DNA from: Calditrichia bacterium
Lineage (GTDB): Bacteria > Calditrichota > Calditrichia > Calditrichales > J004
Reading direction: 5' to 3'
DNA length: 64,000 nucleotides
Assembly (NCBI GenBank): GCA_020635035.1
Contig: JACKAO010000006.1
Span: 57,583-121,582 of the forward strand
A program made the translations under genes and the position numbers. The notes beneath the pieces are model-generated. The model was not told where the DNA came from. It was given only the letters and a program-made list of their open reading frames with translations, and searched no databases. Shown here in pieces: positions 6,972-63,038 of this stretch (position 1 is its first letter; each line of letters opens with the position of its first letter).

Positions 6972-7055
6972 AAATATTAAATTTACCTGAAGAATTTTTA
7001 AAGAAATATATTAAGTATCCCGAAAGTATTAAAAATTTTAATTCGTATTATTTTT

Positions 7056-7514
7056 ATGAGTATCGGCATGGACGTCAAGATTAAAGAAATTCAGGAATTT
7101 GTAATAAATAAAACGCGGGAAAAATGGCTCTCAGATCCCCTTATTAAGCGTTTCCTTGGTTATAAAAACGATTCTTCTGTGAATTCTGCGTCTGAATATC
7201 CTGCATTCTCCCTAAACTATGAAATTTATCTTGGTAAAAAACTTATAGGTGATATAAAAGTTTTTGGCACTAAGAAGGACCTGAAAAAGAAAATGGCACA
7301 GATCCTTGTGGTTCTGGGTGAAGCTCGCGGAAAAGGACTGGGAAGCCAGGCCGTATCTTCATTGCTGGAAAAACTTAAAGATATGTACAAAACGGTCTAC
7401 TGTAATGTAAATCGTTATAACACCGCGAGTATAAAAATGCTCCGTAAAAACGGTTTTCTGATTAAGGATATCAAAGGCAGTGATGTTATTTTCTATAAAC
7501 GTCTTTCGTTTTAA
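7056..7514 (+). CDS. GNAT-family N-acetyltransferase
   Basis: 152 aa. R-G-K-G-L-G acetyl-CoA-binding motif (ARGKGLGSQAV). Confidence 0.6.
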   Translation: MSIGMDVKIKEIQEFVINKTREKWLSDPLIKRFLGYKNDSSVNSASEYPAFSLNYEIYLGKKLIGDIKVFGTKKDLKKKMAQILVVLGEARGKGLGSQAVSSLLEKLKDMYKTVYCNVNRYNTASIKMLRKNGFLIKDIKGSDVIFYKRLSF

Positions 7515-7556
7515 GCACCGCCGTCGATGTTTTTAAAAACAATACAATCTACAATA

Positions 7557-7585
7557 TTGACATATTTTATCGGTGTCTGTATATT
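7557..7585 (+). promoter_or_regulatory. sigma-70-type promoter for tRNA-Gln
   Basis: TTGACA (7557-7562), 17-nt spacer, TATATT (7580-7585), about 25 nt upstream of the tRNA 5' end. Confidence 0.5.
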
Positions 7586-7610
7586 ACCGGACTAATTTTG
7601 AAAATTTAGT

Positions 7611-7682
7611 TGGGGTGTAGCCAAGTGGTAAGGCAGCGGGTTTTGGTCCCGCCATTCCTAGGTTCGAGTCCTAGCACCCCAG
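7611..7682 (+). tRNA. tRNA-Gln (anticodon TTG)
   Basis: Hand-folded cloverleaf. Acceptor TGGGGTG/CACCCCA, anticodon stem GCGGG/CCCGC with loop TTTTGGT, T-arm CTAGG-TTCGAGT-CCTAG. No encoded CCA. Close to the E. coli tRNA-Gln pattern. Confidence 0.9.
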
Positions 7683-7691
7683 CTGTTATAA

Positions 7692-7717
7692 ATGCAAGCT
7701 TTGCTTGCATTTTTTTG
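7692..7717 (+). terminator. rho-independent terminator after tRNA-Gln
   Basis: Perfect stem ATGCAAGC/GCTTGCAT (7692-7699 / 7703-7710) followed by TTTTTT. Confidence 0.65.
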
Positions 7718-7745
7718 TAAAAAATTTTGAACAAGGAGCTGTGAA

Positions 7746-8375
7746 ATGTCGCAAGTCGTACTCTCTGCACAAAAAAGAGAAGATACCGGTAAAGCCTTTG
7801 CACGTCGTTCCCGCCGGGAAGGTCATGTTCCGGGGATTATGTATGGTGCTGAAAATGAAGCCACACCTATTATTGTTAATTCCATGGAATTAAATCGTCT
7901 GCTTCGCAAGCAGCATGCAATTATAACAGTAAATGTGGATGGCGAAGAAAAACAAGCCGTAATAAGAGAGTTACAATATCATCCGGTATCAGGAAATGTT
8001 TTACATATCGATTTTATGCGTGTTTCTGCCGGTCATGCTATCAAAGTAACTGTTCCTATTCATATTGTTGGTGAAGCAAAAGGTGCTAAATCCGGTGGTA
8101 TTTTTTCATCACAGAAAACAGAACTGGAAATTGAAGTTCTTCCACGATTCATGCCGGACAATATCTCTATTGATATCAGCCATCTTGAAATTGGAGATTC
8201 AATCCGGGTGAAAGACGTTCCGGCTGAAAACATTACTTTCCTGGATGATGAAGACGATCTTATTTGTCAGGTAGTTATGCCGCGTGCAGAAACTGAAGAG
8301 GAAGAAGATCTGCTTGATGAAGAAGCTGAAAAAGAACCTGAAGTAATTACTTCCCGCTCAGACGACGAGGAATAA
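7746..8375 (+). CDS. rplY: 50S ribosomal protein L25 / general stress protein Ctc
   Basis: 209 aa. N-terminal L25 pattern (R...GK...RR.R..G.VPG..YG), Ctc-type C-terminal domain and an acidic tail. AAGGAG precedes the ATG. Confidence 0.85.
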   Translation: MSQVVLSAQKREDTGKAFARRSRREGHVPGIMYGAENEATPIIVNSMELNRLLRKQHAIITVNVDGEEKQAVIRELQYHPVSGNVLHIDFMRVSAGHAIKVTVPIHIVGEAKGAKSGGIFSSQKTELEIEVLPRFMPDNISIDISHLEIGDSIRVKDVPAENITFLDDEDDLICQVVMPRAETEEEEDLLDEEAEKEPEVITSRSDDEE

Positions 8376-8392
8376 TATAAGATTGCAGTCTT

Positions 8393-8968
8393 GTGTTCTG
8401 TATTGTTGGTCTTGGAAATCCCGGCAGGAAATATATCCTGACAAGGCACAATGCCGGTTTTCTGGTATTAGATAATATTGCAGATGCTTTAAATATCCCC
8501 TTTAGCCCAGGCAAAGGGGATTATTATTTTCTGGAAACAGAGTTGGAAGGAAAATCAGCAATCCTTATTAAGCCAAGTACATATATGAATAATAGTGGCT
8601 TAATTTTTCAGCAATTGGAAAATAATTTCAATTTTAAAACGGATAAATTGTTGGTTGTATATGATGATTTTCACTTACCTTTTGGAACAATTCGTTTTCG
8701 TTCAAAAGGGTCAGATGCAGGTCACAACGGAATTAAATCAATCATTTATCATCTGCAAAGCGATCATTTCTCGCGTTTAAGGATTGGCATCGGCAGTGAT
8801 TTTGTTGTTTCGATCGATCATGTTTTATCTCCTTTCAATTCTTCAGAAATGACAAATTTGCAAGACATACTTGATGAAGCTTTTTCAGGAATAAAAACCT
8901 GGATGAAAAACGGAATACATACAGCTATGAATAATCATAATCGCAATGTTTTAGATAGAACGAGGTAA
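8393..8968 (+). CDS. pth: peptidyl-tRNA hydrolase
   Basis: GTG start. IVGLGNPG...TRHNAGF and GHNGIKSI motifs. Confidence 0.9.
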
Positions 8969-8972
8969 TTCA

Positions 8973-11147
8973 ATGGAAATGAATGTAGTCTTTGCCGTTG
9001 TCAGCGCAATACTGGCGTTGCTTTTTGCTTTTTTCCGTTCATCTCAGATCAAAAAGAAAGATGCCGGAACAGATGATATGAAAAAAATTTCCAGTCATAT
9101 CCGTGAAGGTGCCATGGCTTTTTTGAAAGCTGAGTACAGGGTTCTGGCAATTTTTGTTGTTGTTGTTGCAGTGTTATTGGGTGTTTCTGCAGACCCGGTT
9201 AATTCATCTGCTTTAGTTGCATTGTCGTTTATAACAGGGGCTTTATGCTCAGGCTTAGCCGGTTTCTTTGGGATGCGCGTTGCTACAAGTGCCAATGTAC
9301 GCACAACTAATGCTGCACGCACAGGTTTAGGACAAGCGCTTGAAGTTGCTTTTGCCGGTGGTTCTGTTATGGGTTTGGTTGTTGTTGGGTTAGGTGTTTT
9401 AGGGCTGGGGAGCCTTTTTCTGTTTTATGAAAGTTTTTTTGGTGCAGACAATATGGAGCAAATCCTGACAGTTCTGACAGGATTTTCATTTGGTGCTTCT
9501 TCTATTGCGTTGTTTGCCCGTGTAGGCGGCGGTATTTACACAAAAGCTGCTGATGTCGGCGCTGACCTTGTTGGAAAAGTTGAAGCCGGAATACCTGAAG
9601 ATCATCCTTTAAATCCTGCAACAATTGCTGATAATGTTGGTGACAACGTAGGTGATGTTGCCGGAATGGGTGCTGACCTTTTTGAATCCTATGTTGGATC
9701 TATTATTGGAACAATGGTTCTTGGGGCAGCATTTATGAGTATCCCTGCTTTTCAACAGGCTGGAAATTTAAATGCAATACTTTTACCGCTTGTTCTTGCC
9801 GGAACGGGTATTTTAACATCAATTCTGGGAACTTTTTTTGTAAGAGTGAAAGAAGGCGGTAATCCACAGAAAGCACTCAATATCGGAGAATTTGGATCAT
9901 CCATAGTGATGGTGATTGCATCTTATTTTATCATTGACAAGATGCTGCCGGCGAATTGGACTTTTAATGATATTACTTATTCATCTACTGGTGTGTTTTA
10001 TGCAACCTTGTTTGGCTTGGCTGCAGGATTAATAATTGGTATGGTCACCGAGTATTATACAGGAACCGGTAAGAAACCAGTCAGGGAAATTGCTGAACAA
10101 TCCGTAACAGGATCTGCAACAAATATTATAGCCGGTCTTGGTGTTGGTATGGTTTCCACAGCAATACCAATTATTGTGATTGCCGTTTCAATTATCGCAG
10201 CTTATGAATTTGCCGGATTGTATGGAATTGCAATTGCTGCTGTTGGAATGCTCTCAAATACGGGTATTCAGCTTGCTGTAGATGCTTATGGTCCAATTTC
10301 GGATAACGCCGGTGGTATTGCAGAAATGTCTGAATTGCCTTCAGAAGTCCGTAAAAGAACGGATAAACTGGATGCTGTTGGTAACACAACCGCAGCAATT
10401 GGAAAAGGGTTTGCCATTGGATCAGCTGCTCTGACAGCATTAGCATTGTTCGCTGCATTTATCACTGCTTACAACCATTCACATAAAGGTAATATTTTAG
10501 ATTCCATCAATATTACAGATCCAAAAGTGATGGCTGCACTTTTTGTAGGCGCAATGATGCCTTTCCTGTTTTCTTCATTTGCTATGAAAGCAGTTGGCCG
10601 CGCGGCCATGTCGATGATTCAGGAAGTTCGGAGACAATTTTCAACAATTCCGGAACTGAAAGCGGCTCTCTCGATGATGCAGAAAAATAATGGTGTGGAT
10701 TTTGAAAAGTGGTCTTCCGACGATCAGAAAACTTTTGAAAATGCGCATGGGAAAGCTGAATACGGAAAATGCGTGGAAATCTCAACAGCTGCGTCTATTA
10801 AAGAAATGGTAATTCCCGGTTTGCTGGCTGTTATTGTTCCTGTACTTTTCGGATTTATTGGTGGCGCTTCCATGCTCGGTGGTCTGTTGGCAGGTGTAAC
10901 AGCGTCTGGTGTATTAATGGCTTTGTTCCAGTCAAATGCAGGTGGAGCTTGGGATAATGCTAAAAAAATGATTGAAGAAGGAATCACCATCGATAATCAA
11001 AAATACGGCAAAGGATCTGATCCGCATAAAGCTGCAGTCGTTGGTGATACAGTTGGTGATCCGTTTAAAGATACAGCCGGTCCGTCGCTTAATATTTTGA
11101 TAAAATTAATGTCGGTTGTTGCTTTGGTTATTGCTCCGTTGATATAA
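8973..11147 (+). CDS. hppA: membrane-bound (H+/Na+)-translocating pyrophosphatase, K+-dependent subtype
   Basis: 724 aa, polytopic. DNVGDNVGD and [11 protein letters not shown] motifs. [10 protein letters not shown] has Ala rather than Lys at the K+-dependence position. Confidence 0.9.
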
Positions 11148-33370: not shown

Positions 33371-33442
<72 letters not shown>

Positions 33443-33583
33443 CTAATGCTTTTTGTTTCTCAAAGTTAGAATTTTGTATATTTTGTTTGTGTATTATTGA
33501 CGATTATCACAGAATAAAATCACTCTTGTGACTTAATTGCTGTTCAATGCCTAATTACTTCGAATTATAACCAGGGAGGAGAT

Positions 33584-35619: not shown

Positions 35620-36813
35620 ATGAAAAATCTACTTTTGAAATTTTTAAGCATACTGCTGATTTCAAATTTTGTTTTTGCTCAGGATGCACAAACCGTAACT
35701 GCCACGGGTTTTGGAGCAATTCTTGCCGGTGACATGGTAAAAGCCCGCGAAGATGCTGTTAATGACGCGCTGCGAAAAGCGGTGGAACAGGTCGTTGGTC
35801 TGATGATTGATTCACGGACAGTAACAGAAAACTTTATGCTTCTTGAAGATAAAATATATACGAAAACAGCAGGTTATGTGCAGAGTTTTAAAGAGATATC
35901 ATCCACTACGCGGCCGGATAATTCACTTGAAGTAACTGTTGAAGCCATTGTAAAAACAGGTGATCTTAAAAATGACCTGGATGGAATTCTGACAACATTA
36001 AGACGAGAAGGTATGCCACGTACAATGGTACTGATCAAAGAAGAAAATATCGGTCAAAACCAGTGGCATATTACATCAGATCTAAATACGGCTGAAACAG
36101 CTATCATGAACACAATGATGGAGTTTGGTTTTCCTTTTGTGGATGCAGCAACTTCCCGAAATAATATAGAAAAAGATGCAGTGATGGCCGCTATTAATGG
36201 TGATGCAAATGCAGCAGCAGCCATTGCTAAAAGAAGCGGAGCTGAAATCCTTATTGTTGGAAATGCCAAGTCCACAGTTACCCAACTCGCTGTGATGAAA
36301 TCTTCCGGGATGAAAACCTGTTCAGCGAATATGAACCTAAGGGTTATTCGGGCAGATGATGCTGTTGTTATTGCAACATCTTCTGCAAGGGGTGTTGCTG
36401 CCCATATTGATGAGCTGACAGGTAGCAGCCAGGCTCTGGAAAAGGCATCCAAACAAGCAGCAACAGAGCTTAAAGATAAGATTATTGAGAAATTCCGTGA
36501 AAACCAGTATGCACATCGTCAGGTGCAACTACAGGTTTTAAATATCTCGAGCTTTTCGCAATTGAGCACGATTAAAAACAGCCTGCCTTACTACATTCGT
36601 GGTGTAAAAAACATTTATCAGCGGAATTTTGAAAATGGCAGTGCTTTGTTTGATATAGAAATTTCTCAGACAGCTGAAACGGTTGCCAGTGAACTCTCTT
36701 CTAAAACTATTGAAGGAATCAATCTTGAGATTATCGGAGTTACACAAAACAAAGTGACTGCCAGGATAGCTCAGGAGAGCCAACAGACAAGTGAAGAAGG
36801 AGGCGTAAATTGA
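35620..36813 (+). CDS. exported protein with FlgT-N/LPP20-like N-terminal domain
   Basis: Signal peptide (FVFAQ). VTATGFGAI...AREDAVNDALRKAVEQVVG resembles FlgT N-terminal / LPP20-type domains. The middle domain (PRTMVLIKEEN...) resembles the CsgG/LpoB-like fold. Pattern-level recognition only. Confidence 0.4.
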   Translation: MKNLLLKFLSILLISNFVFAQDAQTVTATGFGAILAGDMVKAREDAVNDALRKAVEQVVGLMIDSRTVTENFMLLEDKIYTKTAGYVQSFKEISSTTRPDNSLEVTVEAIVKTGDLKNDLDGILTTLRREGMPRTMVLIKEENIGQNQWHITSDLNTAETAIMNTMMEFGFPFVDAATSRNNIEKDAVMAAINGDANAAAAIAKRSGAEILIVGNAKSTVTQLAVMKSSGMKTCSANMNLRVIRADDAVVIATSSARGVAAHIDELTGSSQALEKASKQAATELKDKIIEKFRENQYAHRQVQLQVLNISSFSQLSTIKNSLPYYIRGVKNIYQRNFENGSALFDIEISQTAETVASELSSKTIEGINLEIIGVTQNKVTARIAQESQQTSEEGGVN

Positions 36814-37721
36814 AAAACATTACTTTATGCAAAGCGGTGCTGATCAGCCTGATTTTTGCTTCAGTTTTGTTTAGTCAGGATTTAGCCAATCTAAAAAAAC
36901 GTGTAGCAGTTGTAAATTTTGAAGATGCGGCAGGATATGGCCATAATATTGGAAATGGTTTATCAGACATGCTGATTACAGCACTTGTGGAAAGCAAAAA
37001 ATTTATAGTAATTGAACGCGGTGAACTGGATCAGGTTATGCAGGAACAAGGCTTAGGTATGACGGGTGCGGTAACACCGCAATCGGCAGCAAAAGTTGGT
37101 CAGCTTCTTGGAGTGGAATTGATAATTACCGGTAGTGTGAGTGAGTTTGGCACTAAGCAGGATAAGATCGGCGGGGCTTTAAGTAACCTGAGCGGTTTTA
37201 ACCTGGGTGTTTCAACAGAGTCAGCGCGCTCCGTTGTAGATATCAGGCTTGTTAATACATCTACCGGAGAAATTATTACAGCGAAAAAAGCAGAAGGCGA
37301 AGAAAGTTCAAAGAGCCTGGATAATATTGGTGTTGACGGTATCAATTTTAATAATTCTTCAACCTGGGATAAAACTATTCTTGGAAAAGCTGCCCGGCAG
37401 TCTGTTGAAAAATGTGTTGATATTATCACAGATGGCATGGCTGATATTACCTGGCAGGGCAAGGTTATTAAAGCAAATTCTGATGGTACTTTGTTTATGA
37501 AACCCGGATCTGCGGCAGGAGTAAGCAGTGGCATGACGTTTTGGGTTTACAGACCGGGAGAAGAGCTTATTGATCCTGATACAGGAATTTCCCTCGGTTC
37601 TGAAGAAATGAAAATTGGTAAAATTGAAGTAGTAAGCGATGTTGCCGGGGGAAAGGCCTGCAAAGCAATTGTAAAAAGCGGCAGCAATTTTGAAACAGGT
37701 GACCTTGTACGAATAAAATAA
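36810..37721 (+). CDS. CsgG/HfaB-family (curli-secretion-channel-like) protein
   Basis: KKRVAVVNFED....G.GLSDMLITALVESKKF.VIERGELDQVMQEQ...GAV...SAAKVGQLLGV..IITGSV.EFG is the CsgG-family core. TTG start overlaps the upstream stop (TTGA), with GAAGGAGG 7 nt upstream. Confidence 0.7.
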   Translation: MKNITLCKAVLISLIFASVLFSQDLANLKKRVAVVNFEDAAGYGHNIGNGLSDMLITALVESKKFIVIERGELDQVMQEQGLGMTGAVTPQSAAKVGQLLGVELIITGSVSEFGTKQDKIGGALSNLSGFNLGVSTESARSVVDIRLVNTSTGEIITAKKAEGEESSKSLDNIGVDGINFNNSSTWDKTILGKAARQSVEKCVDIITDGMADITWQGKVIKANSDGTLFMKPGSAAGVSSGMTFWVYRPGEELIDPDTGISLGSEEMKIGKIEVVSDVAGGKACKAIVKSGSNFETGDLVRIK

Positions 37722-37731
37722 TGGGGACGAA

Positions 37732-38484
37732 ATGAAATTCAGAATAGTCAGTTTTGTTACAGGTCTTTTATTGATAAGTATTGCAGTAAGTGCTTATAAT
37801 TTCTGGCAGGTTCCGGCAGTTGCCAAAATTACTTTTCCGTTGGGCAGCGTTATGGTGCTTCCAAAAGGCGAAAAGAAAATGCAGAAAGCCGGTTTTAATC
37901 AGGATCTTTTTCCGGGAGACAAAGTCCGTACAGAGAAACAGGCCCGCTGCGAAATAAAATATAATGACGGAAGTATTGTACGTATAGATCAGCAAAGTAT
38001 TTACACCATTGAAAAAGCGGATATTAAGAAAGATAAAAAAGAAGTTGAATCAAGCCTATCTTTGGGCCGCTTGTGGGCAAATATCAAAAAATTAGCCAGT
38101 TCATCGGATAACTGGCTGTTAAGGGGGCCATCTGCGGTTGTTGCTGTGCGTGGAACAGTATACCGAATGGATGCTATGGAAGATAAATCATCCAAAGTGT
38201 TGGTTTATGAAGGAACTGTAAACGTTGGGCCGCCTTCCTGGGCTCCTGGAAGCGGGGCACAGGGTCAGAATCAGGGCGGGCCACCACGACAGGTACAGGG
38301 TCCGACACAGGTTAAAGGGCCAAGCCAGGTGACATTAGAACAATGGGTTGAAATTGTAAAAGCGCAGCAGCAGATTGTTGTCCAACCCGATGGAAGCTTC
38401 CAGAAATCAGATTTTGATCTGGTCGCAGACGCGCAAAGCAGCTGGGTTAAATGGAACATGGAAAGAGATAAGCTGATAAAGTAA
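37732..38484 (+). CDS. FecR-domain protein with Gly/Pro/Gln-rich segment
   Basis: N-terminal TM. GD.V.T......EI.Y.DGS.VR...QS.. and VAVRGTVY FecR-type motifs. Low-complexity GPPSWAPGSGAQGQNQGGPPRQVQGPTQVKGPSQV. Confidence 0.6.
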   Translation: MKFRIVSFVTGLLLISIAVSAYNFWQVPAVAKITFPLGSVMVLPKGEKKMQKAGFNQDLFPGDKVRTEKQARCEIKYNDGSIVRIDQQSIYTIEKADIKKDKKEVESSLSLGRLWANIKKLASSSDNWLLRGPSAVVAVRGTVYRMDAMEDKSSKVLVYEGTVNVGPPSWAPGSGAQGQNQGGPPRQVQGPTQVKGPSQVTLEQWVEIVKAQQQIVVQPDGSFQKSDFDLVADAQSSWVKWNMERDKLIK

Positions 38485-38511
38485 ATCACTACTGTACTTT
38501 GATGTTTTTAA

Positions 38512-38550
38512 AGGCTGTTCAAATTTTTGGGCAGCCTTTTTTTGTTTTTT
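38512..38550 (+). terminator. rho-independent terminator after FecR-like gene
   Basis: 11-bp stem AGGCTGTTCAA / TTGGGCAGCCT (two G:U pairs), 4-nt loop, then TTTTTTTGTTTTTT. Confidence 0.75.
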
Positions 38551-38672: not shown

Positions 38673-39758
38673 ATGAATCAGAACTTATTTGAAGTCGATA
38701 AACTTCTTGATGGTGCTTCCGGGATAGGAACATCTATTGCCCAGGAAACACGTGAATTAAGCGAGTTTGTTAAAGATAAATCCAATGATCTGATTGACAG
38801 AGTTTCAGCTTACGAAGATATTATCAGCCTGGAAATTGGGGACACATCACTTTCACGAGCGAGAAACATTGAACGTGAAGCAAATATGCGGCAGATTTAT
38901 TTAAAATTTGAAGGGGGCAATCCCACAGGTACTCAAAAAGACCGGATTGCGTTTGCCCAATGCCTGGATGCACTGCGACGCGGTTATGAGACTGTAACCC
39001 TGGCAACATGTGGAAATTATGGAGCAGCCATGGCTTTAGCTGCTGAACTGGCAGGATTAAAATGTATTATCTGTATTCCTGAGAGTTATCATACCAAACG
39101 TATAAATGAAATGAGTAAAATGGGTTCGGAGATTGAGCGTGTTTCCGGAAGTTATGAAGACTCTGTCGATTATTCGATTAAAATGGCCTGGGATAAGGAG
39201 TATTACGATGCGAATCCGGGTGGTGTTAATACTTCCATACAGTTGAAAGCATATGCAGAAATAGCAATGGAGATCTATGACATTCTCAGGGATGCCCCAA
39301 AGATTGTAGCCGCTCCTGTATCAAACGGAACATTGCTGGCGGGCGTGTTCAGGGGATTTGTAAGCTTGTATAAACGCGGGAAAACATCGCGTCTTCCTAA
39401 GATGATTGCTGCTTCATCTACAAATAAAAACCCGATTATTGTATCCTTTAAAAAAGGTTTGAAGAGCTGCAGGGATCTTAATCCTACAGGTATCAAAGAA
39501 ACAAAAATTAATGAACCTTTGATTAACTGGCATTCATTTGATGGCGACGAAGCTTTATGGGCTTTATATGATTCTGATGGCGCGTCCAGATGGGTTAGTG
39601 ATAAAAAACTAATGGATTACTCAAAAATTTTAAAGGACCGGGAAGGACTGAATGTTTTGCCTGCATCTACTGCCGGACTCATTGGTTTGCTTGAAATGCA
39701 TAAAGAAAAGCCGTTTGAAGGGGATCGTTATGTTACTATTCTTACCGGGAGAAAATAA
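38673..39758 (+). CDS. fold-type-II PLP-dependent enzyme (threonine-synthase / cysteine-synthase-like)
   Basis: PLP-lysine motif FEGGNPTGTQKDRIA, ATCGNYGAAMA and PVSNGTLLAG glycine loop. 361 aa. Reaction not assignable. Confidence 0.7.
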   Translation: MNQNLFEVDKLLDGASGIGTSIAQETRELSEFVKDKSNDLIDRVSAYEDIISLEIGDTSLSRARNIEREANMRQIYLKFEGGNPTGTQKDRIAFAQCLDALRRGYETVTLATCGNYGAAMALAAELAGLKCIICIPESYHTKRINEMSKMGSEIERVSGSYEDSVDYSIKMAWDKEYYDANPGGVNTSIQLKAYAEIAMEIYDILRDAPKIVAAPVSNGTLLAGVFRGFVSLYKRGKTSRLPKMIAASSTNKNPIIVSFKKGLKSCRDLNPTGIKETKINEPLINWHSFDGDEALWALYDSDGASRWVSDKKLMDYSKILKDREGLNVLPASTAGLIGLLEMHKEKPFEGDRYVTILTGRK

Positions 39759-40854: not shown

Positions 40855-43194
40855 ATGGATGAAATTAAAAATCTTCAGGATTTTGTAAAAATTAAACAAT
40901 TAAAAGTTGGTCCGTTAATTATTGAAAAGAAGCGCCTGAAAGCGCCCTATGAAGTAACTCATTTCGATGGAAAAACAGATTCAACAAATTTTATTTACAG
41001 TTATGATGAAGCAGTCTTTGATTCAGCAAAGCCTGAAAATGTAAATCTTGCTTCGATGATGGCGGCACAGGTTGCTTTAAATTATGGTCTGTTTTGCGAA
41101 GAAATAGTTTTTGACGGATTATATGACGATGCAGATCGTCGTTTTATAATCGATAAAATGGAAAATACAAGCCGTGAGATATACATAAACAAACTGATTA
41201 TGCCCAATCTTTTCCTAAAGCCGGAATTCAGTAATCTCACCGTTGAAAAACAGCCGAAATACACTGCAAGTAAAATAAAATTTATCAATACCCGGTATGA
41301 TAAGCTTCAGGTTAACTGGAAATATGCAGTAAAAAATCATGATGCATATGCCATTCTCAGCAGTGGTGGAAAAGACAGTCTTTTGACCTATGGAATAATG
41401 AAAGAAATCGGAAAAGATGTACATCCTGTTTTTGTAAACGAAGCCGGCAGGCACTGGTTTACAGCACTTAATTCTTTCCGTCATTATCAGTCAGTGGAGC
41501 CGAATACAGCGCGTGTATGGTGCAACAGTGACCGTGTATTTTCATGGATGCTGCGCCAGTTTTCGTTCATCAGGGATGATTTTAATAAGATTCGTGCGGA
41601 CGACTACCCAATCCGGCTATGGACGGTCGCTGTGTTTTTGTTTGGGGTATTGCCAATTGTTCATAAGCGCGGGATTGGCAGGATTCTTATCGGGGATGAA
41701 TATGACAGCACCCAAAAGGTGACACATGAAGGACTGACTCACTATAACGGGTTGTTTGATCAGAGTAAATATTTCGATAATGCGCTTACCCGTTATTATA
41801 TGAAAAAAGCATGGAATATCTTCCAGTTCTCTATATTGCGCAGTCTTTCAGAAATGCTGATTCTTAAGATTCTTGTAAAACGTTATCCCGATCTTCAGCA
41901 GCACCAGGTATCCTGCCATGCGGCTCATGAAAAGGATGGCCGGATCTACCCATGCGGGAATTGCGAGAAGTGCCGGCGCATAGTTGGCATGCTTATGGCC
42001 ATGGATGAAGATCCAGCCAGGTGCGGATATACAGAAACCAAAGTTGCAGCGGCCTTATCCAATCTTGAGCAGAATAAAGTTAAACAAATCGGTTCGGATG
42101 CTGCACATTTATATCATTTGTTATTAAGTAAAAATTTAATTGCTGAAAACGAACACACTAAAAGAATAGCCGGTGAACATAATTATATCCTTAAGCTGCG
42201 ATTTGATAATGAACGCAGCATGATGAGTGATTTGCCGGAAGACATTCGCAGTAATCTTTTCAGGATTTATCTGCAGTATGCAGATGGTGCAGTGAATCTG
42301 GTCAATCGTAAATGGCAGGATTTTGATGTTCTGAACAGTAAGTTGCTGGAAAAAGATTATCCGTTTGAAGCAAAACGTATTCAGCAAAACATTTCCGCAT
42401 CTGAGAACACGGACACCGAATATCTGTGGGAAAACATGACCTGGCAAGAGATCGAAGATCGTTTAAGTCTGGTTGATACGGCAATCCTTCCATGCGGTGC
42501 TATTGAACAGCATGGACCGCATTTACCTGTTGATATCGACTATTTTGATGCAAGAATCCTGGCAGCTAAAGTCGCTGAAGCCTGCAGTGATCCTAAACCA
42601 TTTGTATTGCCGGCTGTTCCGTTTGGCGTTTCCTATCATCATGAAGATTTTAAAGGAACACTGAGTGTTACCAATGATGCATTATCGCGATTTATTTATG
42701 ACATTGGGATGAGCCTGGCAAAAAATGGGATTAAGAAGCTGATCATTCTTAATGGACATGGCGATAATGCTCCAACATTAAATTATGCGGCGCAAATGAT
42801 TAACCGGGATTCACAAATATTTGTTTGTGTTGAAACGGGGGAAACGAGTGATAAAGACTTGTATGAACTTGTGGAAACGCATAACGATATTCATGCAGGC
42901 GAAATTGAAACCAGCACGACTCTAGCAATTCGTCCGGATAAAGTTAAAATGGAAAAAGCTGTTAATGAGACGCTCACCTTTGGCAGCAGTTATCTTGATT
43001 TTACTTCATCGCGCGGGGTTTCGTGGTATATCAGGACAAAAAAAATATCCCAGTCGGGGATCATGGGTGACCCAACAAAAGCCAGTGCCGAAAAAGGGCG
43101 CAAAATGTGGGAAATTATGATTGCCCATCTGGTTAAATTTGTCGAAGAAATTAAAAAAAGCAACCTGGAAGATTTATATCAAAAAAGATACTAA
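40855..43194 (+). CDS. fusion protein: N-terminal PP-loop ATP pyrophosphatase (adenine-nucleotide alpha-hydrolase) with Cys cluster + C-terminal creatininase-fold amidohydrolase
   Basis: SGGKDS PP-loop at nt 41362-41379 (aa 170-175). Cys354...Cys367-x2-Cys370-x2-Cys373 (CGNCEKCRR) at nt 41914-41973. Creatininase motifs from about aa 528: LPCGAIEQHGPHLP, VPFGVSYHH, LNGHGDN, HAGEIETS. Confidence 0.7.
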   Translation: MDEIKNLQDFVKIKQLKVGPLIIEKKRLKAPYEVTHFDGKTDSTNFIYSYDEAVFDSAKPENVNLASMMAAQVALNYGLFCEEIVFDGLYDDADRRFIIDKMENTSREIYINKLIMPNLFLKPEFSNLTVEKQPKYTASKIKFINTRYDKLQVNWKYAVKNHDAYAILSSGGKDSLLTYGIMKEIGKDVHPVFVNEAGRHWFTALNSFRHYQSVEPNTARVWCNSDRVFSWMLRQFSFIRDDFNKIRADDYPIRLWTVAVFLFGVLPIVHKRGIGRILIGDEYDSTQKVTHEGLTHYNGLFDQSKYFDNALTRYYMKKAWNIFQFSILRSLSEMLILKILVKRYPDLQQHQVSCHAAHEKDGRIYPCGNCEKCRRIVGMLMAMDEDPARCGYTETKVAAALSNLEQNKVKQIGSDAAHLYHLLLSKNLIAENEHTKRIAGEHNYILKLRFDNERSMMSDLPEDIRSNLFRIYLQYADGAVNLVNRKWQDFDVLNSKLLEKDYPFEAKRIQQNISASENTDTEYLWENMTWQEIEDRLSLVDTAILPCGAIEQHGPHLPVDIDYFDARILAAKVAEACSDPKPFVLPAVPFGVSYHHEDFKGTLSVTNDALSRFIYDIGMSLAKNGIKKLIILNGHGDNAPTLNYAAQMINRDSQIFVCVETGETSDKDLYELVETHNDIHAGEIETSTTLAIRPDKVKMEKAVNETLTFGSSYLDFTSSRGVSWYIRTKKISQSGIMGDPTKASAEKGRKMWEIMIAHLVKFVEEIKKSNLEDLYQKRY

Positions 43195-43196
43195 AA

Positions 43197-44273
43197 ATGA
43201 AAATCACACATCTTGAATGCTGGGCTCAGGATTTAACAATCAATGAACCATATACTATAGCTTATGAAACAGTCTCACATTGCACGAATGTATTTTTGCG
43301 GGCAGAAACAGATTCCGGGATATCAGGGTGGGGATGCGCCGCGCCGGATGCCGTAATTACAGGGGAAACAGGCGGTTCAGTAGTGCAGGCGTACAACGAT
43401 TTTATTTTTCCTTTATTAAAGGATTTTGATCCTTTCCGCTATGCTTCAGCCGCAGAGCAAATAAAAAAACAACTTGTTAAGCAGCCGTCTGCTTGTGCTA
43501 TGGCAGATATGCTTCTTTACGATTTAATGGCGAGAAAGGCAGGCGAACCTCTATATAAATTTTTAGGTGGTTTCCGGGATTTTATTCCTACCAGTATTAC
43601 TATCGGCATCCTGCCAGTTGAAGAAACACTGAAAAAGGCGAAACAATTTATAAAAAGCGGTTTCTCCATTCTAAAAATAAAAGGTGGCTGTAATGTTGAA
43701 GATGATATCCGTAAATTAAATCTTGTGCGTCAGAAAATGGGTCCGCAAATAGAGATACGTTTTGATGCAAACCAGGGATATAATCTTGAGCAGGCAATTG
43801 AATTTATCAGGGAAACAAAAGATGCGGAAATTGAGTTGCTTGAGCAACCCACCGATAAAATGAATGAAGAACTGCTTGGTCAGGTTACAAAGAATGTTGA
43901 CATACCGGTGATGGCTGATGAAAGCTTGATGAATCTGAAAGATGTATTTAGATTAACAGCCAATAATTTTACAGATATGATCAACATTAAGCTGATGAAA
44001 GCCGGGGGCATAACAGAAGCAATGCATATTAATTCTGTTGCAAAAGCTGCTGGTGTCGAATCTATGATTGGCTGCATGGATGAATCGGCGCTGGCTATTT
44101 CGGCAGGACTTCATTTTGCATTATCACGCCCAAATATTTCTTACGCAGATTTGGACGGACATCTTGATTTACAGGATGATCCATTTGCAGGCACGGTTAT
44201 TCTGAAAGAAGGTGTCCTTTATCCTGTGGATGCGAATGGTTTTTCAGGAAAAATAAGAAAGAAATGGTTTTAA
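43197..44273 (+). CDS. enolase-superfamily dipeptide / N-acyl-amino-acid epimerase (L-Ala-D/L-Glu epimerase family)
   Basis: KIKGG (KxK), RFDANQGY, LEQP, PVMADES, NIKLMKAGG and GCMDES motifs of the MLE-subgroup epimerases. Confidence 0.8.
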   Translation: MKITHLECWAQDLTINEPYTIAYETVSHCTNVFLRAETDSGISGWGCAAPDAVITGETGGSVVQAYNDFIFPLLKDFDPFRYASAAEQIKKQLVKQPSACAMADMLLYDLMARKAGEPLYKFLGGFRDFIPTSITIGILPVEETLKKAKQFIKSGFSILKIKGGCNVEDDIRKLNLVRQKMGPQIEIRFDANQGYNLEQAIEFIRETKDAEIELLEQPTDKMNEELLGQVTKNVDIPVMADESLMNLKDVFRLTANNFTDMINIKLMKAGGITEAMHINSVAKAAGVESMIGCMDESALAISAGLHFALSRPNISYADLDGHLDLQDDPFAGTVILKEGVLYPVDANGFSGKIRKKWF

Positions 44274-62348: not shown

Positions 62349-63038
62349 TTGAGTAACAAATCTTTAGCAGTAGTGCTTGTAAGCGGCGGAATGGACAGCT
62401 GTGTTTCGGCAGCCATTGCTGCCAAAAACTACGAACTGGCATTTATGCATCTCAATTATGGACAGAAAACAGAAAAGCGTGAACTACGTGCTTTTACAGA
62501 AATAGCTGATTTTTATAAGGTGGAGAAACGCCTGGTTGTCGATGCCCGTTTTTTTAATACAATTGGCGGAAGCAGTCTCACAGATGAAAATATTCCTGTA
62601 AGCCCGGCTGATTTATCCAGTGAAGATATCCCAAGCAGTTATGTTCCATTCCGGAATGCAAATATTCTCTCTATGGCAACCAGTTATGCTGAAACTTTAA
62701 GTGCCGTTAAAATATTTATCGGTGCTGTAGAAGAAGATTCGTCGGGGTACCCCGATTGCCGGCAGGATTTTTATGATGCGTTTAATAAAGTAATTGCCAT
62801 TGGTACAAAGCCTGAAACGCAAATTGAAATAGTCACACCGCTGATAAAACTTAAGAAAAGTGAAATAATAAGGCGCGGAGTCGATCTGGCAGCTCCGCTC
62901 CAGCTCTCCTGGTCATGCTACCAGAGTGAAGATGAAGCTTGTGGTGAATGTGATAGTTGCGCTTTGCGTTTGCGCGGGTTCCGTCAGGCAGGCCTGGAAG
63001 ATCCCATAAAATATAAAAAACGACCTGAATATCTATAA
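62349..63038 (+). CDS. queC: 7-cyano-7-deazaguanine synthase
   Basis: VSGGMDS PP-loop and C-terminal Cys cluster CYQ...[13 protein letters not shown] start. Confidence 0.9.

Follow-up and report, generated by a model that had tools for sequence, protein, structure and literature searches.

A predicted MurL-like PP-loop module joined to a creatininase-family amidohydrolase in a conserved operon of a Calditrichia bacterium

MurL is an ATP-using enzyme that inverts the terminal residue of a peptide, turning L into D. It requires ATP and Mg and releases AMP, and it has been described as having no known domains (PMC5808125, PMC8788868); a 2021 review still called its mechanism unclear (PMC8788868). 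In a second described system, DgcN and DgcA, a DUF1611 N-acetyltransferase and an enolase-superfamily N-acetyl-D-Glu racemase together convert D-Glu to L-Glu (PMC10845958). Here, we describe a protein and an operon with relatives in both systems. They lie in 64,000 nucleotides of a Calditrichia bacterium genome (GenBank assembly GCA_020635035.1, contig JACKAO010000006.1, positions 57,583 to 121,582 of the forward strand); this whole stretch is called the window, and all coordinates without a locus handle refer to it. At 40855-43194, the window encodes a single protein of 779 amino acids (aa) in which a module of about 505 residues, apparently a divergent branch of the MurL family, is followed by a creatininase-family hydrolase. 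A literature search found nothing on this architecture or on its operon, characterised proteins included, in agreement with an earlier note made from the DNA sequence alone, whose author knew of no characterised protein built in this way.

The open reading frame (ORF) is a single uninterrupted frame on the plus strand, with its stop codon within the coordinates given, and it is laid out as follows.

40855..43194, plus strand: predicted bifunctional ORF, MurL-like PP-loop module plus creatininase-family amidohydrolase, 779 aa
40855..41328, plus strand: N-domain of the module, aa 1-158, beta-sheet and helix, with conserved NYGLF and ENTSREI motifs
41332..42000, plus strand: QueC-like PP-loop (adenine-nucleotide alpha-hydrolase) domain, aa 160-382
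41362..41379, plus strand: PP-loop motif SGGKDS, aa 170-175, predicted ATP pyrophosphate-binding loop
41914..41973, plus strand: Cys4 site, C354 and C367-x2-C370-x2-C373, predicted structural Zn site, QueC-like
42001..42369, plus strand: helical C-terminal subdomain of the module, aa 383-505, conserved, and found in all stand-alone and split versions
42370..42429, plus strand: variable inter-domain linker, about aa 506-525, of low conservation, with a predicted local distance difference test score (pLDDT) below 50 at aa 508-520
42430..43191, plus strand: creatininase-family metallo-amidohydrolase domain, aa 526-779, Pfam PF02633

Each motif named in the earlier note was found exactly where it had been placed, including CGNCEKCRR (aa 367-375, nucleotides 41953-41979) and the hydrolase motifs EQHGPHLP (aa 551-558), GVSYHH (aa 591-596), NGHGDN (aa 633-638), and HAGEIETS (aa 680-687). 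The division of the remaining sequence has to be redrawn. That note had left about 165 N-terminal residues unassigned and had treated aa 380-525 as a linker of about 150 residues, but neither the N-terminal ~165 residues nor aa 380-505 are spare sequence. Both are conserved parts of one module of about 505 aa, which also exists as a stand-alone protein, and the true linker covers only about aa 506-525. In a Pfam scan, Creatininase (PF02633) was the only match to the protein (aa 526-763, E 2.3e-68); aa 1-525 had none, with a Pfam set that was without the MurL models PF26298 and PF26299. Among 120 full-length homologues of 60-70% identity, SSGGKDS, the four Cys residues, and the creatininase motifs are conserved at 98% or above. 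SGGKDS is invariant among close homologues (A1 alignment), and across 35 very divergent family members, C354, C367, and C370 are the sole fully invariant columns. Judged from its sequence, the ORF appears to encode a genuine bifunctional enzyme, and we regard it as close to certain that the fusion is real and that its domains are correctly identified.

The family to which the N-terminal module belongs was defined by an exhaustive HMMER search using a profile of aa 1-520 (E ≤1e-3) and comprises 544 clusters at 50% identity. The main NCBIfam model matching the module is MurL_Xanthomonadales (NF041275), found in 16 of the 35 divergent members with a best E-value of 7e-10. With an E-value of 8e-36, the A1 module profile also finds a bridging clade (P0238). 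A search with the single sequence P0238 did not reach MurL, but the profile of its clade did, retrieving MurL-family proteins from a database of 5.8 billion sequences with E-values down to 3e-10. The proteins so retrieved have MurL_N and MurL_epimerase_C domains and score 254-345 bits against the MurL model; the gene of one of them, a true MurL (P0286), overlaps a Mur_ligase_M gene, i.e., it shows the MurD2 arrangement. When the window family and the MurL proteins were compared by hhalign, they aligned with 98.1% probability (E 7e-14) over 294 columns corresponding to aa 37-379, the N-domain aligning from aa 37 with the N-terminal part of MurL-family proteins. In that alignment, SGGKDS of the window family is paired with GGGKDS of MurL, GDE with SNE, ITHY..LYDQSKYFD with INHQYSKTFDFE, and FSILRSLSE.LI with FSFLRPLSELQI; in condensed form, the motifs common to both are H..DQSK.FD/NHQYSK.FDFE and FS.LR.LSE..I. 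The Cys pattern SC...CGxCxKC is also common to both (C290, C303, C306, and C309 in MurL-family proteins).

These comparisons place aa 1-505 in the MurL family as a divergent branch, and the members of either branch are predicted to be PP-loop enzymes with a QueC-like Cys4 site. The earlier note had looked to diphthine-ammonia ligase and Ncs6/TtuA-type enzymes for the kin of this PP-loop; given the NF041275 and hhalign matches, the relevant relative is MurL, which that note had not considered. The module and MurL have in common the N-domain, the PP-loop GGKDS, the E/H/QSK/LRPLSE motifs, Cys-x(n)-CGxCxKC, and a size of ~450-505 aa. In both cases, the gene adjoins that of a P-loop enzyme, often with translational coupling, and by analogy the module would be expected to activate the C-terminal carboxylate of a peptide at the cost of ATP going to AMP (PMC5808125). 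There are also clear differences: a creatininase-family hydrolase is joined to the module or encoded beside it, which is not so for MurL, the operon is not one of cell-wall genes, and its substrate is almost certainly not a uridine diphosphate (UDP)-muropeptide.

The bridging clade (P0238/P0272), which has the PP-loop SGGRDS, is encoded (P0271, L008 2599-3999) on a contig of many small ORFs without Pfam matches and of phage-like appearance, and related proteins of 450 aa occur in Thorarchaeota, Promethearchaeota, and Bathyarchaeota-like metagenome-assembled genomes (MAGs; P0274-P0280).

The fold prediction points in the same direction as the PP-loop motif. In an AlphaFold2 model of aa 1-520 (pLDDT 85.9, predicted template-modelling score 0.86), SGGKDS directly follows strand 161-169, and the top Foldseek neighbour of this model is QueC (3bl5_A, template-modelling score (TMt) 0.71, probability 1.0; 2pg3, 0.66). 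Nearly all of the best neighbours are PP-loop ATP pyrophosphatases; further matches were to Cap9 (0.62), MnmA, MJ0690, LarE, TtuA, ThiI, and carbapenam synthetase (1q15); the probabilities of the PP-loop matches were as high as 1.0, yet their E-values were only about 2e-3. Neither the single sequence nor a profile of the N-terminal half matched any PDB sequence significantly, the profile returning only weak 30-residue PP-loop matches to MJ0690 and TtuA at aa 158-194 (E 0.075-0.55). The N-terminal half is thus modelled as an adenine-nucleotide alpha-hydrolase (PP-loop) fold, and the earlier call of such a fold is supported by the Foldseek neighbours. Modelled alone, the N-domain (aa 1-158) reached a pLDDT of 88.7, and Foldseek found no convincing match to it among solved folds (best template-modelling score ≤0.37, with scattered RNase-H-like matches).

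The likeness to QueC, the nearest structural neighbour of the central domain, extends to the position of the PP-loop and to the four-Cys motif. The pattern Cys-x(n)-Cys-x2-Cys-x2-Cys, to which the earlier note had drawn attention as QueC-like, is indeed present, and C354/C367/C370/C373 are probably a Zn site; the spacing is SC-x12-CGxCxxC in the window protein versus SC-x7-CGxCxxC in the QueC that the window itself encodes.

62349..63038, plus strand: canonical queC, with the PP-loop SGGMDS and C-x7-CGECDSC

The organism therefore has an ordinary QueC besides the MurL-like module. BLASTP between these two proteins aligned the Cys cluster alone (E 0.077), and the window protein matched neither of the QueC models PF06508 (Pfam) and TIGR00364 (NCBIfam); one distant archaeal relative in the family gave a sub-threshold match to a QueC model (E 0.0055). 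The window protein further differs from QueC in its additional 160-aa N-domain and 120-aa C-subdomain, and no que gene context surrounds it.

Besides stand-alone proteins of 460-520 aa, the family includes fusions of the module to creatininase, of DUF1611 to the module, and of the module to an S-adenosylmethionine (SAM)-dependent methyltransferase, the last in a protein of 825 aa (P0124, L007 506-2983). In several members (P0148, P0157, P0140, P0185, P0193, and P0224), the PP-loop is degenerate (e.g., VDGTRES, VSGSAES) and the Cys cluster is kept; these relatives are therefore probably ATP-inactive paralogues. Two members with a degenerate PP-loop are also fused to creatininase. P0157 (L010 417-2762) is found in a different context, beside an unknown 421-aa protein and a CofD-family gene.

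The C-terminal half matched all 238 positions of PF02633 (1-238) with 230.6 bits, against a gathering cut-off of 31.3 bits. Aligned with Pseudomonas putida creatininase (1q3k) and with 3lub, residues E551, H553, D562, H635, D637, H680, and E685 coincide with E34, H36, D45, H120, E122, H178, and E183 of 1q3k, the metal ligands and catalytic residues of creatininase. H-G-D at the second-metal position resembles H-Y-E of creatininase. The C-terminal half is predicted to be a complete, active-looking binuclear metallo-amidohydrolase of the creatininase family, as the earlier note had supposed from its motifs; the Pfam match is full-length and all metal and catalytic positions are present. All scores against the equivalog models of the family were below their cut-offs, namely 142.9 of 172 bits for MftE, 105.9 of 235 for creatininase, 85.3 of 245 for IolN, and 23.2 of 180 for ArfB. 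The window protein also differs from these four in that no mycofactocin, creatinine, inositol, or riboflavin context is found around it, and from the creatininase family in that the hydrolase is here covalently joined to a PP-loop module.

A homologue search over 5.8 billion proteins yielded more than 120 full-length relatives (~770-790 aa) at 60-70% identity, from Flexithrix, Cyclobacteriaceae, Saprospiraceae, Reichenbachiella, and Bacteroidales. Where these are named at all, the name is only 'creatininase family protein', with IMG adding '/7-cyano-7-deazaguanine synthase' for some. When one genome was scanned for each GTDB species, at least 536 species genomes proved to encode a relative, and the best 80 loci, which were analysed further, come mostly from marine Bacteroidota, plus a single-amplified genome (SAG) of Neomarinimicrobiota and a Desulfatiglandaceae MAG. 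ORF calling in these 80 loci showed the module and the creatininase to be fused in 29 and to be adjacent separate genes in the other 51. The fusion had been described in the earlier note as unusual, which is somewhat too strong, since this architecture occurs widely and is frequently split.

In the split form, the two genes are adjacent, often overlap, and encode proteins of ~505 and ~266 aa; the end of the first and the start of the second coincide with the variable aa 506-525 of the window protein. A neighbour-joining tree mostly keeps the fused and the split forms apart in different clades; the fused forms group together, and the partner of the window protein is the copy from the Neomarinimicrobiota SAG. 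In that genome (Candidatus Neomarinimicrobiota SAG AM-312-I22, L016), the halves are found at 6983-8521 and 8457-9329, in different frames and with a 65-nucleotide overlap; a gene that was once fused may have been broken here by a frameshift, either genuine or due to a sequencing error.

The fusion gene is the third of a tight four-gene operon on the plus strand, the other features of which are these.

38510..38539, plus strand: intrinsic-terminator-like hairpin with a 13-bp stem and a T run, closing the upstream gene and marking the 5' boundary of the operon
38673..39758, plus strand: operon gene 1, a fold-type-II pyridoxal phosphate (PLP) enzyme, threonine-synthase-like, 361 aa
39758..40825, plus strand: operon gene 2, DUF1611, with a Rossmann-like N domain and a P-loop domain containing GTDSAIGKRTT
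43197..44273, plus strand: operon gene 4, an enolase-superfamily dipeptide epimerase, 358 aa, with catalytic K160/K162/K265, metal ligands D190/E216/D241, and the DxD motif D318/D320

A gap of 188 nucleotides separates gene 1 from the ORF before it (37732-38484). Gene 1 was identified by Pfam PALP (E 3e-49), NCBIfam PRK06381 (418.7 bits), and ThrC in the PDB (2zsj, E 3e-28). Gene 2 matched Pfam DUF1611_N and DUF1611 as well as the PDB entries 2g0t, 2obn, and 7xrj, and it is a paralogue of the D-Glu N-acetyltransferase DgcN (NF041892, 153 bits against a cut-off of 480 bits). DUF1611 was also considered as a Mur-ligase homologue, which would have made it a direct analogue of MurD2 beside MurL; this was rejected, as hhalign gave a probability of 2% and the similarity is confined to the Walker-A motif.

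When the operon proteins were used in tblastn, the five modules (PLP enzyme, DUF1611, MurL-like module, creatininase, and epimerase) were collinear in 61 of 91 fetched loci, and most of the exceptions are truncated contigs. No further conserved neighbours beyond the four genes were found across 80 loci, and no flanking synteny was found between the window and any fetched locus. On one metagenomic JGI contig (3300042731, P0125), the order is PALP, an 855-aa DUF1611+module fusion, a separate creatininase gene, and MR_MLE, so the fusion boundary is a different one. More distant family members keep PALP-DUF1611-module and are missing the hydrolase or the epimerase; the core of the operon is therefore the PLP enzyme, DUF1611, and the MurL-like module, with the hydrolase and the enolase-type epimerase as frequent additions. 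Functional coupling of the PP-loop and creatininase halves, which the earlier note had proposed, is supported by their conserved adjacency and by the alternative fusions. The lactam opening and the two-step transformation of a single substrate that it had also suggested are inferences.

Variation around the operon was observed in two lineages. In the Flavobacteriaceae loci L090, L066, L070, and L079 (Muriicola and others), the upstream PLP and DUF1611 genes are missing. In 10-13 Flavobacteriaceae loci (also L029 843-4598), the operon is flanked by two Beta-lactamase2-family genes; the same loci encode an MFS/TLC transporter of 939 aa that bears HEAT repeats, and a fusion of GNAT and carbon-nitrogen hydrolase lies downstream. 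These flanking genes fit D-amino-acid or cyclic-amide chemistry, though they are lineage-restricted. In the split-type Saprospiraceae loci L058 (9905-11302) and L026 (9735-11042), the enolase-superfamily gene is longer (436-466 aa, through an N-terminal extension of ~100 aa) and more divergent, and the PLP and DUF1611 genes are not nearby. Elsewhere in the window, 35620-38484 on the plus strand holds three genes for predicted lipoproteins or secreted proteins, the last being a Gly/Pro/Gln-rich protein of 250 aa; these form a separate unit ending at the terminator at 38510-38539, are unrelated to the operon, and their adjacency to it is not conserved elsewhere. The only Rfam matches at gathering level in the window are tRNA-Gln(TTG) at 7611-7683 and tRNA-Gly(CCC) at 33371-33443, both on the plus strand.

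The epimerase bears on the substrate class. Its closest PDB matches are YkfB (1jpm/1tkk) and 3jva of Enterococcus faecalis, and K160, K162, K265, D190, E216, D241, D318, and D320 are invariant in 68 operon-linked copies; D318/D320 make up the DxD motif for the ammonium group of a dipeptide. R24 of YkfB, which binds the Glu side chain, is replaced by an invariant E24, and the segment GCMDES is common to the operon epimerase and M. capsulatus 3rit, a structure reportedly solved with L-Arg-D-Lys. Because of E24 and the common GCMDES, an acidic pocket and a cationic dipeptide seem plausible, and L-Ala-D/L-Glu seems unlikely.

Compared with DgcN-DgcA, the operon has paralogues of both proteins and, by analogy, may follow the same logic, in which the amino group is derivatised and the alpha-carbon of the C-terminal residue is then inverted (PMC10845958). 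It is nevertheless a different system: DUF1611 scores 153 versus 480 bits and the epimerase 151 versus 400 bits, the epimerase looks to be of the dipeptide type (DxD, with YkfB and 3jva closest), and the operon adds the PLP enzyme, the MurL-like module, and the creatininase.

By analogy with these systems, the reading that we prefer, at a probability of roughly 0.4, is that a small peptide or an N-acyl amino acid would be activated at its C-terminal carboxylate and epimerised at the expense of ATP, with amide hydrolysis following. The PP-loop module would use Mg-ATP to adenylate the C-terminal alpha-carboxylate of such a substrate, giving AMP and pyrophosphate. The substrate, probably cationic, would be made or handled by the DUF1611 partner, which would supply an N-acyl or peptidyl compound by analogy with DgcN and with the pairing of MurD2 and MurL. 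The acyl-adenylate, possibly via an oxazolone-type cyclic species, would allow irreversible epimerisation at the alpha-carbon as in MurL, and the creatininase-fold domain would then hydrolyse an amide bond of the product or of the (cyclic) intermediate, by deacylation or dipeptide cleavage. The PLP enzyme would make or consume the free amino acid. Taken as a whole, the operon would carry out ATP-driven stereo-inversion or processing of an amino acid or dipeptide, a logic akin to that of MurD2/MurL and DgcN/DgcA.

Several points weigh against this. The protein scored only 14.8 bits against the 700-bit equivalog cut-off for MurL (NCBIfam NF041275), and identity is only ~20%. In precomputed Pfam annotation, PF02633 is the one domain assigned to the 120 close homologues; the same annotation does assign PF26298 and PF26299 to true MurL proteins. 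In the window and in nearly every locus showing the upstream gene, the operon partner is DUF1611 and not a Mur ligase. Some family contexts (L006, L009) have no hydrolase, which is thus accessory and not obligatory, and MurL itself is not known to require a separate hydrolase. If both epimerases of the operon act on a common substrate, there seems little need for an ATP-driven one alongside a reversible one of the enolase type, and the role of the PLP enzyme is not explained by the proposed mechanism. Since it falls short of the curated cut-offs and differs in context, the 779-aa protein is an orthologue neither of MurL nor of QueC, MftE, or creatininase.

In NAD synthetase, GMP synthetase, asparagine synthetase B, and QueC, a nucleophile attacks an adenylated carboxylate, and this is a precedent for an amidotransferase-like reaction, in which the creatininase-fold domain would free ammonia or an amine that attacks a carboxylate adenylated by the PP-loop domain, yielding an amide, amidine, or nitrile. 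A PP-loop synthetase and a hydrolase as fused or adjacent subunits is the classical architecture of amidotransferases. The glutamine- or amide-dependent amidotransferases NadE, GuaA, and AsnB and the beta-lactam and carbapenam synthetases likewise combine a PP-loop domain for adenylation with a hydrolase domain, either within one chain or through neighbouring genes, and in each of the best 80 loci the halves of the window protein are either one protein or encoded side by side. QueC, the nearest solved fold, amidates an adenylated carboxylate, and the PLP enzyme of the operon could release ammonia too. Nonetheless, we consider this rather unlikely. The creatininase fold is undescribed in that role, no member of its family being known as an ammonia-donating subunit, and MftE, creatininase, IolN, and ArfB instead cleave peptide, ring, or formyl bonds. 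Sequence homology to the amidotransferases and lactam synthetases is limited to the PP-loop fold, and some operons have no hydrolase gene. MurL, the one sequence relative that has been characterised, is an epimerase without a nitrogen donor (PMC5808125).

Unlikely as well is an undescribed ATP-driven pathway, encoded by the operon, for stereo-inversion of an amino acid or dipeptide or for peptide-bond transposition, in which the MurL-type PP-loop enzyme would turn the C-terminal carboxylate into a cyclic activated intermediate (oxazolone, lactam, or diketopiperazine) and the creatininase domain would open its ring stereo- or regio-selectively.

A further possibility is that the PP-loop domain adenylates the C-terminal carboxylate of a dipeptide, that an internal nucleophile closes a diketopiperazine, lactam, or oxazolone, and that the creatininase-fold domain, as a cyclic amidohydrolase, reopens this ring, perhaps across another bond or from another face, so that the product is isomerised or transposed. 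A five-membered cyclic amide is what creatininase itself opens and closes, and the metal site predicted here is of the binuclear creatininase type, with H-G-D resembling H-Y-E. The beta-lactam and carbapenam synthetases, which are PP-loop enzymes, form lactams from adenylates (1q15 is among the Foldseek matches), and the operon epimerase belongs to a type that binds dipeptides with a free N-terminus. Beta-lactamase-family genes stand beside the operon in 13 Flavobacteriaceae loci, but these are restricted to that lineage. The proposal is purely chemical reasoning with no known intermediate, MurL functions without such a hydrolase, and the hydrolase is optional in some contexts; we judge it decidedly unlikely.

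The last three alternatives are poorly supported. An orthodox MurL function would be in keeping with the homology to MurL, but it is very improbable in view of the 14.8 bits against 700, an operon of amino-acid and dipeptide enzymes rather than cell-wall genes, the absence of a neighbouring Mur ligase of the kind that true MurL P0286 overlaps, and an epimerase with E24 in place of the Glu-binding R24. Modification of RNA or nucleosides by an enzyme of the QueC/TtuA/Ncs6/diphthine-ammonia-ligase type is suggested by the PP-loop variant with its Cys cluster, by the Foldseek matches to MnmA, TtuA, ThiI, and QueC, and by the IMG names 'creatinine amidohydrolase .../7-cyano-7-deazaguanine synthase' of some homologues. 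It is equally hard to credit, given that the window protein has no Pfam or NCBIfam match to QueC, TtuA, or related families and no RNA-binding domain, that its amino-acid and dipeptide enzyme partners are strictly conserved, that a separate canonical queC is present, and that profile homology favours MurL. Finally, the joining of two neighbouring genes by an assembly or frameshift artefact, which the earlier note had raised and which the 51 split loci and the overlapping ORFs of the nearest relative (L016) might suggest, is excluded for practical purposes because the fused frame, open here across 779 codons, recurs widely (uninterrupted and with a linker of similar length in 29 independent species genomes, in more than 100 full-length proteins of 770-790 aa and 60-70% identity, and in forms that cluster in the neighbour-joining tree) and because the split point matches the variable linker.

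The analysis gives an identity to ~500 residues that had been annotated only as part of a 'creatininase family protein'. The PP-loop assignment would also explain the release of AMP by MurL and points to residues for mutation. What has been found is best seen, on sequence grounds, as a divergent branch of the MurL family with a new set of partners and a covalently attached hydrolase, and not as a categorically new system. A conserved five-module operon (PLP enzyme, DUF1611, MurL-like module, creatininase, and dipeptide epimerase) is defined, without an assigned function, and the alternative fusions of module with creatininase, DUF1611 with module, and module with methyltransferase provide testable hypotheses on which steps are coupled. 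Were the pathway through a cyclic intermediate and its ring opening to prove true, the creatininase fold would gain a catalytic role not described before, and the unsolved reaction of MurL a mechanistic template. The 779-aa protein is accordingly a good target for enzyme discovery and a handle on the mechanism of MurL, and the operon is probably concerned with the chemistry of D-amino acids or small peptides, which bears on the turnover of marine organic matter.

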